DNA from: a virus | Taxonomy: Duplodnaviria > Caudoviricetes | Virus record (IMG/VR): IMGVR_UViG_3300021964_000470 | Coordinates: 1-25,422 of that record | DNA length: 25,422 bases | Direction: 5' to 3' (one strand) | In this document: piece by piece, positions 17,708-24,683 of the stretch | Layout: every line of letters begins with the position of its first letter | How positions within the stretch are numbered: the first letter of the stretch is position 1 | Position numbers and translations under genes: made by a program | Notes under the pieces: generated by a model | Seen by the model: only the letters and a program-made list of their open reading frames with translations | Told to the model about the DNA's origin: nothing | The model's database searches: none

Positions 17708-18411
17708 CTTACAGCGGATTTGAAACAAGAAGTATTGGCAGCAAAGACTGTACTTATTTCAATAATGGTACCCCAGACAATCAATATGATTACATCCTGA
17801 AACCAATGACAGGTGACACGGATTATCCTGAGGATGCCTGTCCCCTTTATTATCACGCTTATTTCCAGGTTGATCGCATTCAATTGAATCAACAGATCAA
17901 TGGTAGTGGTCTTATCAACATCGGTGGTTCCATTGACTCTGGTAGTTCTATCAATGCTGCTGGTAATGTAACCTCCAATGGTGGAACTCACGTTCTCTCT
18001 GCTAAGAAGAACTTTGACATTCCTCACCCAACCAAAGAAGGTTGGAGACTTCGCCACACTTGTATTGAGGGACCTGAGAATGCTGTGTTCTTCCGTGGTG
18101 TAATGAGAGACACACAGTACATCAACCTTCCTGAGTATTGGCAGGGACTGGTGAATCCTGAGACCATCACAGTCAATCTAACTCAGATCGGAACCTCACA
18201 GGATTTGATTGTGGAGAAGATTGAATGGGGTCGTCGTATCAAAGTGAAGTCTGGCAATGCTTCTACCATTCACTGTCATTATGTGGTTTATGGTGAGCGT
18301 AAGGATGGAGAAGTCCTGATTGCTGAATATGAAGGTGAGACACCTGCTGACTACCCAGGCAACAATGAGGAATACTCGGTGTCTGGTTACCATTATGATA
18401 AGAAAAAATGA
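17704..18411 (+). CDS. Fibre/spike-type protein with C-terminal KNFDIPHP-RLRH chaperone-like domain (paralog 2)
   Basis: Same C-terminal domain as the upstream gene, including EYEG.TPADYPGNN..YS.SGYHYD. Confidence 0.6.
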   Translation: MTYSGFETRSIGSKDCTYFNNGTPDNQYDYILKPMTGDTDYPEDACPLYYHAYFQVDRIQLNQQINGSGLINIGGSIDSGSSINAAGNVTSNGGTHVLSAKKNFDIPHPTKEGWRLRHTCIEGPENAVFFRGVMRDTQYINLPEYWQGLVNPETITVNLTQIGTSQDLIVEKIEWGRRIKVKSGNASTIHCHYVVYGERKDGEVLIAEYEGETPADYPGNNEEYSVSGYHYDKKK

Positions 18412-18587
18412 GACCTGAAACAAGAAAGTCAATGGAAATGTTGTTCAATGCACGGTGGAATGTTCCCACTGCTGCCAAGAACTGCAACTTGACAGAAAAG
18501 GAAATGAAGATTACATTTAATGAGTACTGTGTGTTTCATCCTAAGACTTATACTGGAACAAAGGAAGATCAACTCTGGTTGTTTTAA
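18408..18587 (+). CDS. Small cyanophage hypothetical protein, 59 aa (possible HTH-like)
   Basis: Hand translation gives MRPETRKSMEMLFNARWNVPTAAKNCNLTEKEMKITFNEYC...LWLF*. ATGA overlap with the previous stop. Confidence 0.75.
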   Translation: MRPETRKSMEMLFNARWNVPTAAKNCNLTEKEMKITFNEYCVFHPKTYTGTKEDQLWLF

Positions 18588-18590
18588 CTT

Positions 18591-18758
18591 ATGAAAATAA
18601 ATCTGTGGTATTGTCAACATATGGGTCAGTGGAGGTGGACTCTCTGCGATGATCATAGACCCATCATCAAGATGGAATCTGGTCAGAGACCAGACCTTCG
18701 TGATGCGATGAATGATGTGGCAAACACAGTTGAATACATGTTAGAAAAAGGGTTATAA
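18591..18758 (+). CDS. Small cyanophage hypothetical protein, 55 aa
   Basis: Hand translation gives MKINLWYCQHMGQWRWTLCDDHRPIIKMESGQRPDLRDAMNDVANTVEYMLEKGL*. Starts 3 nt after the previous stop. Confidence 0.75.
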   Translation: MKINLWYCQHMGQWRWTLCDDHRPIIKMESGQRPDLRDAMNDVANTVEYMLEKGL

Positions 18759-18759
18759 T
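18730..18759 (+). promoter_or_regulatory. Sigma70-type promoter inside the 3' end of the 55-aa ORF
   Basis: TTGAAT (18730-18735), 18-nt spacer, perfect TATAAT (18754-18759). Predicted TSS near G18766. Confidence 0.55.
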
Positions 18760-18765
18760 TAGTGT

Positions 18766-18815
18766 GTGTGAAGGAAGTGCAAAAGACACCTGGGGTGACC
18801 TGGGTGTCTTTCTTT
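18766..18815 (+). ncRNA. Candidate ~50-nt sRNA with a 5' end complementary to the cyanobacterial Yfr1 motif
   Basis: A promoter and a terminator bracket the non-coding GTGTGAAGGAAGTGC, which is the reverse complement of ACUCCUCACAC with two extra A. Confidence 0.45.
18782..18815 (+). terminator. Intrinsic terminator
   Basis: 13-bp stem AAAGACACCTGGG / CCTGGGTGTCTTT with two G-U pairs, a GTGA (GNRA) tetraloop and a T-rich tail. Confidence 0.8.
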
Positions 18816-18820
18816 ATGCT

Positions 18821-18828
18821 ACTAAATA
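18821..18828 (+). promoter_or_regulatory. Putative late promoter ACTAAATA for the giant fibre gene
   Basis: Immediately after the terminator and 35 nt before the ATG at 18864. Confidence 0.65.
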
Positions 18829-18863
18829 ACTCATAAGTAGAACCGTGCGCTGGTTGTAAGAAG

Positions 18864-21800
18864 ATGCCACTCTCTCGTTTAGATAATTTCCTCAAGAATG
18901 TCAGGGGAAACGTTCTTTATGTTGATCCCAATGGTTTGGATGCCACTGACAGTGTAGAAAACACTGGTAACTCAGCATCTCGTCCTTTCTTATCCATCCA
19001 AAGGGCCCTCCTGGAAGCAGCAAGATTTTCATATCAAGTAGGTACTGACAACGATCGTTTTGCTCAGACAACAATCGTTCTGACCCCTGCAGATTATGTT
19101 GTAGATAACAGACCTGGTTGGATTCCTGATGGTTCAATCTTCTACCAGAGAAACGGTTCTACTACTTCTTCTTTCCCTCAACTGACCACGGCATCTAACT
19201 TCGATGTTGAGGATCCTGACAATGTTCTGGTAAGAGCAAACAGCATCTACGGTGGTGTTATCGTTCCTCGTGGTGTTTCGATTGTAAGTTCTGATCCAAG
19301 AAAGACAAAAATCAGACCTAAGTACGTTCCCGATCCAACAAACACCAACATTGAGAGATCTGCTGTCTTCCGTCTGACGGGTGGTTCTTACATTGAGGGT
19401 GTAACCATTCTTGATGGTGATCCTTATGGAACAGTTTACAATAACTATGGTACAACAACATCTGTTCCTAACTTCTCACACCACAAACTCACAGCATTTG
19501 AATATGCTGATGGTGTCAACTCAATCAATATCAGTGATTCCTTCCTGACTTTCTACACTTCCAGAACTGATCTGGATGTTTATTATGAGAAAGTTGGTCT
19601 TCTGTATGGTCCAAACTCTGGTCGTGAGATCTCACCAGATTATCCATCCAGCGGTGTAGACATCAATACTAAGGTTGATGAGTATCGTATCGTTGCTCCT
19701 CTGTCTGGAAGAGCAGGCATCAGCACCATTGAAGCAGGTGATGGTGTTTCTCCAACCACAGTCATCACGGTCACACTGACTGATGAACTGCCAGGCATCA
19801 ACGTTGACACTGCTATTGTTGTCAGTGGTGTCAGTGATAATGCTTATAATGGAACATTCATTGTTGATAATGTAATCACAACCAATGCCAATGGAACTAA
19901 GAAGTTCCAGTATGAAGTCCCAGCAGCACCAACAGACGCTTCACCAACTGTTGCTGGTACCAGAGTTGAGTTGGCAATCAACTCCACCACAAGTTCTTCT
20001 CCTTATATTGTTCAGACAACAATCAAATCTTCTTATGGTTTATGTGGTGTCTTTGCTGATGGATCTAAGGTTAGTGGATTCAAATCGATTCTGTTGAATG
20101 AGGTCAATGGTATTGGTCTTCAGAATGATGAGAATGCTTTCCTGAGATTCAATTCTACCAGTGGAAGTTTTGATGACTCGGGTTCAGTTTCTAACCTGAA
20201 CAATGATCCTGATGCAGTTTACAAACCTGCTTATTACAACTACTTTGTAAAGGTTGCCAATAAGGCATTTGCTCAGATTGTTTCCTCCTTTGGTATCAGT
20301 TACTCCCAACAGTTTGTAACTGACAGTGGTGGTACTTTCTCTGCTTCCAACTGTAACTCCAACATGGGTCAGAACTCTCTGTACTCCATGGGATTTAGAG
20401 ATGATGCTTATGCCAGAGATGACATTGGTTATCTCTCTCACATTGTTCCACCTAAGTTCAATGTTGCCACAGACATCAACCTGGAATTTGATGCCATTGA
20501 TGTTTCCAAGACTGTTGGTGTTGGTTCAACATCCAGACTTTATCTTTACCAACAAACCAGTCAGGCATCTGCACCTAAGTCAGTTCTTCAGGGTTACAGA
20601 ATTGGTGCCAAACAGAATGGAAGACTTTCAGTCAACATCAATGACACCAATTATTATGCCAGGGTCATCATGCCCAACACGGAGAAAGACATTAATCAGG
20701 TCTCCTCTGTAAAAGTTGTTGAGGTTGGAACCAATGTTTCCACTGGTAACAGCATCTCAGCAAACACAATTACTCTGAAAGAAGATCACCAGTTCCTGAA
20801 TGGTGAATCCATCAGAGTTCTTTCTGATAATGCTCGTATTCCTGATGGATTGGAAGCAAACAAAGTTTACTTTGCCATTACTGATGGTCTGAGTGATAAC
20901 CAAGTTCAGGTTGCCATCTCACTGAATGATGCCATCAATGGTAATGAGTTGGTCATCAACAACTTGGGTGGAAACCTGAGAGTTGAGTCTCGTGTTTCTG
21001 ATAAAAGAGCAGGTGACATTGGTCACCCAATTCAGTGGGACTCCGATGAAAGTCAGTGGTTTGTTCAGGTTGCCACAGCAGCAACTGATAACTCACTTTA
21101 TCCAACTGTTGTCTCACTTGGAACAGCAGAACTGGGAGATGCAACACCAAGAACTTACATCACCAGAAAACCAGACACCAGAGCACTTCAGGACAGAATT
21201 TATCGTGCTCGTTACGTTATTCCTGCTGGATCTGGCATCTCATCCTCCAGACCACCACAAAAGGATTACATCCTTCAGCAATCCAATGATGTAACTGGTG
21301 CTAATGACGCTGAGGTTGCACTTCCTTATAACCCCAACACAGTCTCAATGACCAACGTCACTGAGATGAGAAACTTTAGTTTCATTCGTGCCGCTGAGTG
21401 GACATCCAACGAAGCAAAATATACCACAGAACTTCCTCACAAACTCTCTATTGGATCTAAGGTCAAGGTTGTCAATGTCACCAGTGCCAACAACACAACT
21501 GCCATTGGTAACTCTGGTTTCAATGGAACCTTTACAGTTTCTGGAATTGCAAGTGCTAACCAGTTCACAGTAACCAACTCTTACAGTGATCCTGGTGCTT
21601 TCACCAACAACACTTCAGAAAGAACCACTTCACTCCCAACCTTCCAGAGAGTTGAAGCAGCAAATAACTTCTATGTTTATGATGTCAGTCCCATCATTCC
21701 TTATGTTACAGGTGTTCAGGATGGTGTATATTACCTGACTATTATTGACTCAAGCAACACACCAACAATCACACCATTCAACAACTCTGATAACTTCTCC

Positions 21801-24683
21801 TTCTCTGCTCCAGTTGAGGATCTTTACCCACAAGCAGACAGAGACAATCCTCAGTCTGATCCTGTTGAGACTACAACTTATGCTCCAGCAAACCTTCTGG
21901 GTTCAGTTGTTGTTGATGATCCAAGAAACAGTATCACAAGACAGGCAGTCAATAGATCATATGGTGATTTTGGAATTGGTGTTGGAATTACTGACATTGT
22001 TTCTACAGCAGCAGGAACAGCACATACAATCTTCACCAGATATGACCATGGTCTGAATGGTGTTACTCTGGTTGCCATTAGCACTGCTGGTGCTGGTTAT
22101 GGTAATGGAACTGGATCTGCTGAGAACCTTTACAATGCCACACTGACTGGTTCTTCCACTGGTGCCAACGGAACAGCAAGAGTTACAGTCAACTCCTCTG
22201 GTGCTGTAACTGGTGTCAAGATCATGAACAGTGGAACCAACTATGCTGTTGGCGATGTTCTGACTGTTACAGGAACAGCAACCACAACTGGTTTCAGCAC
22301 AGCATATCTGACTGTTTCTGCTATCAATGATAACATTGGTGACACTCTGAGAGTTGCTGGTGTGACCTCTGAGGGTTATGCTGGTTATAACCAACTCTAT
22401 AGAATCACTGGAAGCGCTGGTCTGAAGTCAATCCAAGCAACATCAGTTGATCCAGTTTATAACAACTCCATCATTGGTGTTGGTGGTGATGTTACAACCA
22501 CAGCATTTGCTCATGTTACAGGATCTAAACTGGATGTTTCTTCCTTTGTTGTCAACACTTCAGTTGGTCTGGCAACAGTCACCACAGTTCAACCTCATGG
22601 TCTGAGAGTTGACAGTGCTATTACTTTGGGTGGCGCATCTGATGATCTTTACAATGGAACCTTTGTTGTTACTCAGAATGTTGGACTGACAACCTTTGTT
22701 GTGAACATTGGTGTTTCAACTCTGAGTCCTGCAGTTTCTGGAACACAGAGAGCATACTATCCTGGACTGACTGCTCAGGAAGGAACAACCAACTTTATCA
22801 ATGAGAACTTTGGTGGAAGATTCCATAACGTCTACGCTGGAATCTCAACTGTTCTTTCTGATGAAGTTGCAAGTGCATCTGTTACAGAGATTAGAATTGA
22901 GAACCTTTCCAACTTCAACTTTGGAATTGGTGATTATCTGAGAGTTGATGATGAGATCATGAGAATCAAGTCAACTGTAACCACCAACCCAGTTGAAGTC
23001 TTTAGAGGTCTGTTTGGAACTGTTTCTGCAACTCATGCCACAGGATCAGTTGTTAGAAAGATTCTGGTCAACCCAGTTGAACTGAGACAACCATCAGGAA
23101 TCACTGCTAATGGTCACACCTTTGAATACCCTGGTTATGGTGCTGGTAACTACTCCACAGCACTTCCACAACTCCAGAACACTCAACTCACTGATAATCA
23201 AGAGAGACTTGCACAGAACCTTGAGTCGGGTGGTGGATCTAACCAATTCTCTGGTTACAATGCCAATGGCGATTACTTCATTGGTAACAGAAAGATTGAC
23301 AGATCAACTGGAAGATCGACTACAATTGACACTCCAGTCCCAACAGCAACTGGTGAAGATTTTGATTCACTGACGACCAACCCCGAAGTTGATCTCATCC
23401 AGACTGATGAGATTCGCACAAGAACCTCCATCATAGTTTCTGGTGGTCTTTACAACGATTCCATCTCTGAGTTTGATGGACCAGTTGTTCTTACACAGAA
23501 ACTGACCTCAACGTCCTCTGATGGTATTGAGGCACAGTCACTGTTCCTCCAAGGCGACAGAACAGTTGCCAGAAATTACACTGTTGGAATTTCAACTCCA
23601 ACCACAGCAGGTAACCCTGGTGATGTTGTTTATAATGCATCTCCTGTTAAGGGTGGTTACATGGGTTGGGTCTTCACCAGAGAGAACACTTGGTTCCCAT
23701 TTGGTAACGTTGGTGTTGACACAGGAACAACCAATGCAATCTTTGATAAGGTTGGTGTTGCCACTGATGATCCTGGTGATTGTGCACTCAAGGTTGGTTC
23801 TGGAACAACTCTGTTCTGTGTTGACAATGATGGAGTTGGAATTGGAACCACAGCAAATGGTGAGAAACTGAATGTTGATGGTTATGTTGTTGCACTTGGA
23901 TTCACAGGTGATGGTTCGGGACTGACTAATCTTCAGAATGACAGTGCTTGGGCAGGCATCAGCACCATTTATCCAATTGACAATAAGAGTGTTGGAATTG
24001 GAACCACATTCCCATCCACAGATTACAAACTCTCTGTTGGAACACCAGGCACAGGTGGAACTGATCTTTATGTTGCTAATGACACCCAGATTGATGGGGT
24101 TGTAACCCTAAATGGTGGTGCAAATGTCACTGGCATTGTGACAGTCACATCATTCAACATGAATGACTCCAGTGGAACACTGACTGCTGGAATCATTACT
24201 GCCACAACTCTGGATGTCAACTCCAGTGGAGACAAACTGACAGTCAATTCCTCGGGTGTTGGTGTTGGAACTGCCACTCCAAGAGCAGCTTTGGATGTTG
24301 AAGGAGCAGCAAGGTTCAAGACTTACTATGAGATTCCAAAGGCAATCAGCAGTGTTGGAAGTGTTGTAACTCTGGATCTTTCTAAAGCACAGACATTTAT
24401 TCTTACTGTAAGTGAGATTGTTGCTTACTTTGAACTGATCAATGTTCCATCATCCTCAGCAACTACCTTTACAATCCAGATCATTCAGGATTCCTCAACT
24501 GCTTATTCTGTTGACATTGATGACTTTAGAACCAGTGGTGGTTCTGCCATCCCACTCAGATGGCCAGGTGGAATTGCACCAACAGTCACACCAGTTGCAA
24601 GTGCAGTTGATGTTTATTCATTCATGACATTTGATGGTGGATCTAACCTTTATGGTGTTATCGGAGGCCAGAACTTCTCATGA
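18864..24683 (+). CDS. Giant virion structural / tail fibre protein (1939 aa)
   Basis: Cyanophage fibre-type N-terminus MPLSRLDNFLKN..GN.LYVDP, T/S/G/V-rich repeated beta modules, VGIGT repeats and a C-terminal WPGG.APT...DVYSF.TFDGG...GQNFS domain. Confidence 0.8.
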   Translation: MPLSRLDNFLKNVRGNVLYVDPNGLDATDSVENTGNSASRPFLSIQRALLEAARFSYQVGTDNDRFAQTTIVLTPADYVVDNRPGWIPDGSIFYQRNGSTTSSFPQLTTASNFDVEDPDNVLVRANSIYGGVIVPRGVSIVSSDPRKTKIRPKYVPDPTNTNIERSAVFRLTGGSYIEGVTILDGDPYGTVYNNYGTTTSVPNFSHHKLTAFEYADGVNSINISDSFLTFYTSRTDLDVYYEKVGLLYGPNSGREISPDYPSSGVDINTKVDEYRIVAPLSGRAGISTIEAGDGVSPTTVITVTLTDELPGINVDTAIVVSGVSDNAYNGTFIVDNVITTNANGTKKFQYEVPAAPTDASPTVAGTRVELAINSTTSSSPYIVQTTIKSSYGLCGVFADGSKVSGFKSILLNEVNGIGLQNDENAFLRFNSTSGSFDDSGSVSNLNNDPDAVYKPAYYNYFVKVANKAFAQIVSSFGISYSQQFVTDSGGTFSASNCNSNMGQNSLYSMGFRDDAYARDDIGYLSHIVPPKFNVATDINLEFDAIDVSKTVGVGSTSRLYLYQQTSQASAPKSVLQGYRIGAKQNGRLSVNINDTNYYARVIMPNTEKDINQVSSVKVVEVGTNVSTGNSISANTITLKEDHQFLNGESIRVLSDNARIPDGLEANKVYFAITDGLSDNQVQVAISLNDAINGNELVINNLGGNLRVESRVSDKRAGDIGHPIQWDSDESQWFVQVATAATDNSLYPTVVSLGTAELGDATPRTYITRKPDTRALQDRIYRARYVIPAGSGISSSRPPQKDYILQQSNDVTGANDAEVALPYNPNTVSMTNVTEMRNFSFIRAAEWTSNEAKYTTELPHKLSIGSKVKVVNVTSANNTTAIGNSGFNGTFTVSGIASANQFTVTNSYSDPGAFTNNTSERTTSLPTFQRVEAANNFYVYDVSPIIPYVTGVQDGVYYLTIIDSSNTPTITPFNNSDNFSFSAPVEDLYPQADRDNPQSDPVETTTYAPANLLGSVVVDDPRNSITRQAVNRSYGDFGIGVGITDIVSTAAGTAHTIFTRYDHGLNGVTLVAISTAGAGYGNGTGSAENLYNATLTGSSTGANGTARVTVNSSGAVTGVKIMNSGTNYAVGDVLTVTGTATTTGFSTAYLTVSAINDNIGDTLRVAGVTSEGYAGYNQLYRITGSAGLKSIQATSVDPVYNNSIIGVGGDVTTTAFAHVTGSKLDVSSFVVNTSVGLATVTTVQPHGLRVDSAITLGGASDDLYNGTFVVTQNVGLTTFVVNIGVSTLSPAVSGTQRAYYPGLTAQEGTTNFINENFGGRFHNVYAGISTVLSDEVASASVTEIRIENLSNFNFGIGDYLRVDDEIMRIKSTVTTNPVEVFRGLFGTVSATHATGSVVRKILVNPVELRQPSGITANGHTFEYPGYGAGNYSTALPQLQNTQLTDNQERLAQNLESGGGSNQFSGYNANGDYFIGNRKIDRSTGRSTTIDTPVPTATGEDFDSLTTNPEVDLIQTDEIRTRTSIIVSGGLYNDSISEFDGPVVLTQKLTSTSSDGIEAQSLFLQGDRTVARNYTVGISTPTTAGNPGDVVYNASPVKGGYMGWVFTRENTWFPFGNVGVDTGTTNAIFDKVGVATDDPGDCALKVGSGTTLFCVDNDGVGIGTTANGEKLNVDGYVVALGFTGDGSGLTNLQNDSAWAGISTIYPIDNKSVGIGTTFPSTDYKLSVGTPGTGGTDLYVANDTQIDGVVTLNGGANVTGIVTVTSFNMNDSSGTLTAGIITATTLDVNSSGDKLTVNSSGVGVGTATPRAALDVEGAARFKTYYEIPKAISSVGSVVTLDLSKAQTFILTVSEIVAYFELINVPSSSATTFTIQIIQDSSTAYSVDIDDFRTSGGSAIPLRWPGGIAPTVTPVASAVDVYSFMTFDGGSNLYGVIGGQNFS

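Follow-up and report, generated by a model that had tools for sequence, protein, structure and literature searches.

A conserved RNA unit of Synechococcus myoviruses with a head antisense to the anticodon arm of host tRNA-Val(CAC)

Between two genes of a T4-like cyanophage fragment lies a short segment that resembles a transcription unit of its own. What RNA would this segment produce, and with what would that RNA pair? The first-pass annotation of the window (the whole stretch of DNA analysed, 25,422 nt) proposed an early decoy for the host small RNA Yfr1. We found that the phage RNA unit is real, conserved and apparently undescribed; its target is very likely a different one, host tRNA-Val(CAC), and disabling this tRNA is its most likely function.

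RESULTS AND DISCUSSION

Setting and anatomy of the unit

The window carries baseplate and tail genes and has its best DNA matches in Synechococcus phages. The unit sits in the 105 nt separating a 55-aa hypothetical gene from a 1939-aa tail fibre gene (Table 1). The former, phrog_2818 (18591–18758), and its neighbour phrog_1308 (18408–18587) are two small conserved genes of unknown function; the phrog_2818 gene, in which the predicted promoter lies, is often the immediate 5′ neighbour of the unit at the tail fibre slot. In related phages tRNA genes are often kept just upstream of this slot; ARAGORN found no tRNA gene or cloverleaf on either strand of the window. The tRNA cluster of phage Sf-FS3 (L005:116–405) contains, according to Rfam, a cyanobacterial two-piece tmRNA that is unannotated in the record.

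Table 1. Features of the small RNA unit and its neighbours (positions in the window)
Feature	Positions	Strand	Remarks
55-aa hypothetical gene, phrog_2818	18591..18758	+	3′-end houses the predicted promoter of the small RNA unit
−35-like hexamer TTGAAT, predicted	18730..18735	+	18-nt spacer to the −10 box
−10 box TATAAT, predicted promoter	18754..18759	+	overlaps the stop codon of the 55-aa gene
Head GTGTGAAGGAAGTGC, unpaired, 15 nt	18766..18780	+	predicted start G18766, seven bases past the −10 box
Predicted intrinsic terminator, also capping the 3′-end: hairpin of 13 pairs with a GNRA loop (GUGA)	18782..18811	+	structure conserved, sequence not
U-rich tail, predicted 3′-end of the ∼50-nt RNA	18809..18818	+	
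TAAATA, late-promoter-like box for the tail fibre gene, which we take to be a T4-type late promoter	18823..18828	+	immediately after the terminator; invariant in 15/15 rows of alignment A1
Tail fibre gene, phrog_529	18864..24683	+	downstream neighbour, outside the unit

The two hexamers with their spacer, the start, the GNRA hairpin and the U-tract are all located where the first-pass annotation had placed them. Both promoter boxes lie in the last part of the 55-aa ORF, and TATAAT includes its stop codon. A promoter match of this kind is by itself at chance level (28 sites found versus 27.6 expected); thus, the promoter call is carried by conservation. In relatives a TTGAC is often present at a similar place (seen, uncounted). 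The 50-nt RNA folds with −20.4 kcal/mol (z −3.8) and its first 16 bases, the head among them, stay unpaired, as had been proposed. By its sequence, a promoter and an intrinsic terminator with no ORF in between, the unit has the make-up of a trans-acting small RNA.

In a read-through RNA of the window the head can pair with bases 3′ of the terminator. Here (18752–18832) the terminator stem gains ∼20 pairs, many of them G-U (z about −5), and the extended stem, only partly common to relatives, buries the head and the TAAATA region. Contigs from RNA runs (8 of 14 runs, assembled contigs only) were uninformative either way: none bridges the unit and two end inside it at low depth. In one run of unknown kind the contig of a relative spans the unit; there are changes beside the head and, among those listed, none in it.

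Conservation among related phages

A search with the pattern TATAAT-gap-head matched at least 119 stretches of IMG/VR (about 250 estimated). A terminator was present in 75 of 91 distinct stretches found in this way; among the 16 without it, 13 of the 14 scanned are followed by a phage tRNA gene at a distance of no more than about 150 nt. In four loci (L072, L078, L119 and, directly behind the head, L081) the head continues into a conserved structured RNA of 60–80 nt, with no terminator and no Rfam match, which is followed by tRNA-Gly. In seven more (L008, L037, L051, L064, L066, L069 and L101) the head and a short hairpin precede a phage tRNA-Gly or tRNA-Leu as the 5′ leader of its precursor, and RNase P would free this leader as a separate RNA.

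A sample independent of the motif was obtained by fetching the best 80 of 181 relatives of the tail fibre start. The head of the window was found at 35 of these loci, a related head at 15 and none at 29, one locus being too short; among distinct loci, 45 of 69 had the element. In the distinct elements, thus found via the tail fibre protein and not via the motif, a terminator was present in 44 of 45 cases versus 9 of 800 random positions, and this is the count to use, as another one (102/114) has no control and a floor on length. A TAnnnT box was situated 4–10 nt upstream in 36/45 elements versus 143/800 control sites, while in 8/45 it was replaced by a late-type TAAATA box. Given the latter number, the proposed early timing is not general. 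TAAATA stands where other copies have the −10 box in L128, L170, L176, L183, L187, L199, L201, L202 and Syn9 (L221); timing may differ between phages.

The hairpins are unrelated in sequence (91 distinct among 114), and the genes downstream of 101 elements fall into 19 clusters, most commonly tail fibre (33) and tail tube (28). The head is unpaired with probability ≥0.7 in 76 of 102 cases, a conserved single-stranded seed independent of its neighbours. Because the anatomy is conserved while the hairpins are unrelated and the downstream genes are so diverse, the unit is, as judged from comparison of copies, self-contained and mobile, with its information in the head. On this point the first-pass annotation is supported: the unit is non-coding and conserved, stands on its own and exposes a 5′ head for pairing. 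A blastn search with the intergenic stretch retrieved only two cyanophage relatives, the rest being chance matches. Loci with no element (L148, L151, L160, L163, L169 and L178) have in common a different intergenic sequence 5′ of the tail fibre gene, rich in AT and containing A and T runs.

Complementarity of the head to host tRNA-Val(CAC)

The head, 18766–18780, is the exact complement (15/15) of positions 23–37 of host tRNA-Val(CAC), i.e. of the end of the D-stem, the 5′ strand of the anticodon stem and the whole anticodon loop. In Synechococcus WH7803 the gene of this tRNA is located at L380:379–450, with the anticodon at positions 33–35. For a given start, the probability that a random sequence is exactly complementary to any of 41 tRNAs over 15 bases is about 2 × 10⁻⁶. 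The 12-nt core of the head has the tRNA-Val(CAC) gene as its sole perfect match in five out of five host genomes. With a natural 20-nt head (from L096) at least 119 genome stretches were matched (about 1500 estimated); of 60 matches scanned, 58 were tRNA-Val(CAC) on the opposite strand and the other two were cut by a contig end. As many of these matches are in non-cyanobacteria, the anticodon arm is not unique to cyanobacteria.

The related heads at the tail fibre slot have only GTGTG in common with the head of the window and bear CCTTCC 5′ of it. Aligned, the head types mirror a stem of five pairs closed by a loop of seven bases, the form of an anticodon arm. Stretches antisense to tRNA-Val(CAC) of 11–16 exact bases are present in 44 of 45 elements; in 24 loci with no element they do not exceed eight. 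Heads of type A pair with varying reach within tRNA positions 21–43, and some of them add a block at 5–14; type B1 heads pair with 31–43 and 9–17, and type B2 heads with three collinear blocks, 32–46, 49–55 and 62–70. All three types span the anticodon. The class B pattern gave 74 matches, 52 of them with a terminator-like end; the remainder look like chance and were dropped.

More is told by the bases outside the searched core. Pairing with tRNA-Val(CAC) needs a C before the core (the partner of G38), while pairing with Yfr1 needs a G. Of the two positions preceding the core, across 88 distinct A elements, one was C in 61 cases and the other in 46; G stood there in 11 and 1. Where the −10 box is 8–9 nt away, a distance at which transcription would include the base next to the core, that base was C in 56 of 56 cases; it was C in 5 of 27 at a spacer of ≤6 nt and U in 5 of 5 at 7 nt. 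This tie to promoter distance speaks for selection at the RNA level, with the reservation that all counts of elements given here are of related sequences and not of independent events. Also, B heads fold less (medians −4.1 and −1.4) than a perfect antisense to the tRNA stretches concerned would (−10.6 and −7.9), and type A starts inside the complement of the loop, thereby avoiding a self-hairpin.

In Syn9, S-SM2, S-CREM1 and the window the longest stretch antisense to any of the 41 host tRNAs (phage tRNA genes excluded) is this element, with 15–17 nt. Among the top 12 matches listed per genome there was no other anti-tRNA promoter-terminator unit, the other matches being ≤14 nt. S-PM2 has no antisense match of >14 nt to any of the 41 tRNAs.

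Predicted pairing energies and the Yfr1 alternative

Among 41 WH7803 tRNAs and five Yfr1 RNAs the best predicted partner of the window RNA was tRNA-Val(CAC), with a net energy of −15.8 kcal/mol versus −12.6 to −12.9 kcal/mol for the five real Yfr1 RNAs, with the reservation that such energies omit tRNA tertiary structure, modifications and EF-Tu, all of which oppose invasion, and that the Yfr1 motif is open. On Val(GAC) and Val(TAC) the net values were −6.1 and −1.2 kcal/mol. Of the class A heads 35 of 49 score better on tRNA-Val(CAC) and 14 on Yfr1; the medians are −16.4 versus −9.7 for B1 and −21.0 versus −6.7 for B2. Selectivity is not uniform, as B2 heads are also strong on another host tRNA (median −15.9, first 12). 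On such modelling we consider the energies less decisive than natural variation for the choice between tRNA and Yfr1.

The proposal that the unit is a sponge for Yfr1/Yfr10, a phage mimic of Yfr2, has points in its favour. The bulged pairing of the head with the Yfr1 11-mer is possible as described, a 12-pair duplex being predicted with real Synechococcus Yfr1; host Yfr2-5 start with a similar motif and pair via a bulge and a mismatch (PMC2518516, in the part available), and repression by Yfr1 was lifted by Yfr2 in a reporter, according to the accessible part of PMC6778093. The energy check suggested for this reading thus gave a predicted interaction (about −13 kcal/mol), weaker, however, than that with tRNA-Val(CAC) (about −16). 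Further, the two ‘bulged’ A's are Watson–Crick partners in the tRNA; a perfect 15-nt complement of Yfr1 would form a duplex of −28.2, while the head forms −15.4 on Yfr1 and −26.3 on tRNA-Val(CAC). The bases flanking the core track the tRNA and not Yfr1, and the other heads at the tail fibre slot keep the tRNA pairing and lose most of the Yfr1 pairing. The Yfr1 reading of the unit is probably wrong, and as a main function titration of Yfr1 is very unlikely. Secondary binding of Yfr1 by class A, as modelled, is possible as a side activity that would not explain the family.

The likeness to the Yfr2 family (Cyano-1, presumably Rfam RF01701) is that of a short RNA with its own promoter and an unpaired G-rich 5′ head starting with GUGUG that acts by pairing. 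Still, the unit is phage-encoded and its head is perfect on the tRNA and has two bulges on Yfr1; it also has no long central stem with the conserved 12-nt loop and bulge by which, in the available part of PMC2662882, the family is defined. In the window Rfam gave no Cyano-1 or other match at the element up to an E-value of 5, and in 20 loci nothing above the gathering score on the element. An Rfam match to abiF in S-CREM1 belongs to a different locus.

Distribution in phages and hosts

We examined 26 named phage records. The element was present in 7 of 12 Synechococcus phages (S-B05, Bellamy, S-SM2, Sf-FS3, S-CREM1, Syn9 and Syn33; five of these seven were chosen by likeness to the window region) and was not detectable in the other five (S-PM2, S-SCSM1, S-SSM7, S-CRM01 and S-RSM4). 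In Syn9 it lies at NC_008296 119421–119470. None of 12 Prochlorococcus phages, including two phages of the GC-rich MIT9303, had it. Nor was it in T4 and HTVC008M, in agreement with the expected absence from non-cyanobacterial T4-like phages. A blastn search with the tRNA arm, below whose reach short heads fall, matched 131 of 50,697 phage records; 92 were named Synechococcus and no Prochlorococcus phage was among the matches listed (60).

The target 15-mer was found in 110 of 151 genomes of the host family: in 106/112 genomes of ≥2.1 Mb, in 1/4 at 2.0 Mb and in 3/35 at ≤1.9 Mb. The five small host genomes that we checked yielded genes for Val(GAC) and Val(TAC) as the only valine tRNAs and no Val(CAC) gene; a loose 9-mer search in small genomes gave background level. 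The Yfr1 motif was present in all five, which are of Prochlorococcus size, yet no element was found in the Prochlorococcus phages, which speaks against Yfr1 as the target. Carriage of the element follows the presence of tRNA-Val(CAC). The median GC3 of the tail fibre gene was 0.26 beside the element versus 0.195 with no element, as expected if the latter are largely Prochlorococcus phages.

Codon usage and tRNA supply

In WH7803, 59% of the valine codons of 69 ORFs (from 140 kb) were GUG, which amounts to 41 GUG per 1000 codons overall. For Syn9, S-SM2, S-CREM1, S-PM2 and the window the two measures are 8–13% and 5–8.5 per 1000. A smaller gap than counted here is given for S-CREM1 and its host (14.2 versus 20.3 per 1000) in Table 3 of PMC9964418, of which a part was available. 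The carriers showed no special avoidance of GUG relative to other G-ending codons, and the lowest GUG use was that of S-PM2, which has no element.

A tRNA-Val(TAC) gene is present in all four phages (Syn9, S-SM2, S-CREM1 and S-PM2). In the three carriers the head is predicted to pair poorly with the Val(TAC) of the same phage (net −2.0, −6.8 and +2.2). Host Val(TAC) was below detection in WH5701, as stated in the accessible portion of PMC11726456; if so, GUG would fall to the single CAC gene.

Proposed function and its alternatives

We are confident that the partner of the RNA is host tRNA-Val(CAC), and its purpose is quite likely to weaken host decoding. Probably, then, the unit makes a ∼50-nt RNA that pairs with the anticodon arm and takes the GUG-reading tRNA out of decoding. 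The host polymerase, or in some relatives the late polymerase, would make an RNA of 45–60 nt with a free head and a protective hairpin, in the window from G18766. The head may nucleate on the open anticodon loop and proceed by strand invasion, displacing one strand of the stem; type A would invade the stem from the 5′ side and type B from the 3′ side, on the mature tRNA or, more easily, on its precursor. Such pairing could block decoding, charging or maturation, or mark the tRNA for decay. GUG-rich host mRNAs would be translated slower, and GUG-poor phage mRNAs, served by the phage tRNA-Val(UAC), would be less affected; the outcome would be a codon-selective brake on host translation.

The same sequence evidence would be produced by an RNA that binds tRNA-Val(CAC) for another end, such as protection or splinting of the anticodon loop when a nuclease of the host attacks it, capture of tRNA fragments, recruitment of a protein to the tRNA or its concealment from a sensing defence. 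Defences that cut tRNAs, and phage counters to them, are common in the literature as far as it was available; the patchy carriage in Synechococcus phages and the exchange of A, B1 and B2 at one slot look like an arms race, and the carriers do not avoid GUG in particular. We regard such ends as unlikely, since pairing along the entire loop would already halt decoding and leave little to be gained by protection, and with 19 clusters downstream there is no conserved protein partner. An action in cis is far less probable: a T-box-like attenuator, in which the nascent leader would bind tRNA-Val(CAC), set read-through into the next gene and so test the type of host. It is true that a GUG codon in the head faces the anticodon, that the head can pair past the terminator in the read-through RNA of the window, that in 37 of 102 read-through folds the mean unpaired probability of the head is <0.4, and that nearly all scanned copies lacking a terminator run into phage tRNA genes. 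Yet no antiterminator involving the hairpin was seen and the hairpins are unrelated; the downstream gene is not constant and in most cases has a late-type box to itself past the terminator; the antisense blocks stop at position 70 of the 72 of the tRNA, leaving the CCA end unpaired, and neither an Rfam T-box match nor a T-box Stem I or antiterminator was found.

The match could also be a relic at the DNA level: within a hotspot rich in tRNA genes, either an attachment site or what is left of a tRNA gene in inverted orientation. The hairpin would then only terminate the upstream operon. Related phages do keep tRNA arrays at the tail fibre slot, and there is a known case in the Ralstonia phage RS-PII-1 (L563:780–830, near record position 855), where an unannotated inverted 3′ half of tRNA-Val(CAC) with its CCA end lies beside a recombinase gene and looks like an attachment site. 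The element has in common with an attP at a tRNA gene that phage DNA is identical to a part of a host tRNA gene. However, an attP is one exact block running to the 3′-end of the tRNA and adjoins an integrase gene, whereas in the window the block covers 23–37 only, and the element has its promoter and terminator on either side of short, interrupted blocks. The B types match in patches. The match is tied to promoter distance and has no CCA end; it was kept at many loci while the hairpin was replaced, and no recombinase or integrase was found among the 22 proteins of the window scanned or the 16 downstream neighbours. The probability of a relic is slight indeed. Weakening of host decoding through tRNA-Val(CAC) thus stays our preferred reading.

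Relation to known systems

AgvB and AsxR are phage or prophage anti-sRNAs that act by base-pairing. The unit resembles them and DicF, which in the sources available is a trans-acting phage or prophage RNA with a 5′ seed and a terminator aimed at a host RNA. Their partners, however, are mRNAs or other small RNAs, while here it would be a structured housekeeping tRNA. In T-even infection host tRNA-Leu is cleaved. With PrrC/Stp, PARIS, retron Eco7 and Septu the proposed system shares the removal of one tRNA species at the anticodon region during infection, with phage tRNAs filling the gap; those are nucleases, mostly on the side of the host, in contrast to the antisense RNA of phage origin proposed here.

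Low-GC cyanophage myoviruses reshape the tRNA pool of high-GC Synechococcus, and Val(CAC) belongs to the tRNAs that some hosts have and others do not (PMC3152331, accessible part). Supplementation as described there adds tRNAs with AT anticodons, whereas the unit would subtract one with a GC anticodon. The available part of the S-CREM1 paper (PMC9964418) lists abiF, wcaG, manA and glnA and not this unit. In the literature searched, outside which most subscription papers lie, we found no report of this element and none of a natural virus-made RNA pairing with a host tRNA.

Significance

On balance, we favor the view that Synechococcus myoviruses encode a natural family of anti-tRNA RNAs that would invade the GUG-reading tRNA-Val in several designs and from different faces, shifting decoding capacity from high-GC host genes to phage genes. 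The proposal is directly testable, as the carriers Syn9, Syn33, S-SM2 and S-CREM1 are in culture and the RNA is only 50 nt long. If it works as we infer, a codon-selective host shut-off by antisense RNA would be a new route by which viruses of a major marine primary producer commandeer host translation. It would also be the subtractive partner of the phage-borne tRNAs, and would bear on the question why cyanophages manipulate tRNA pools.
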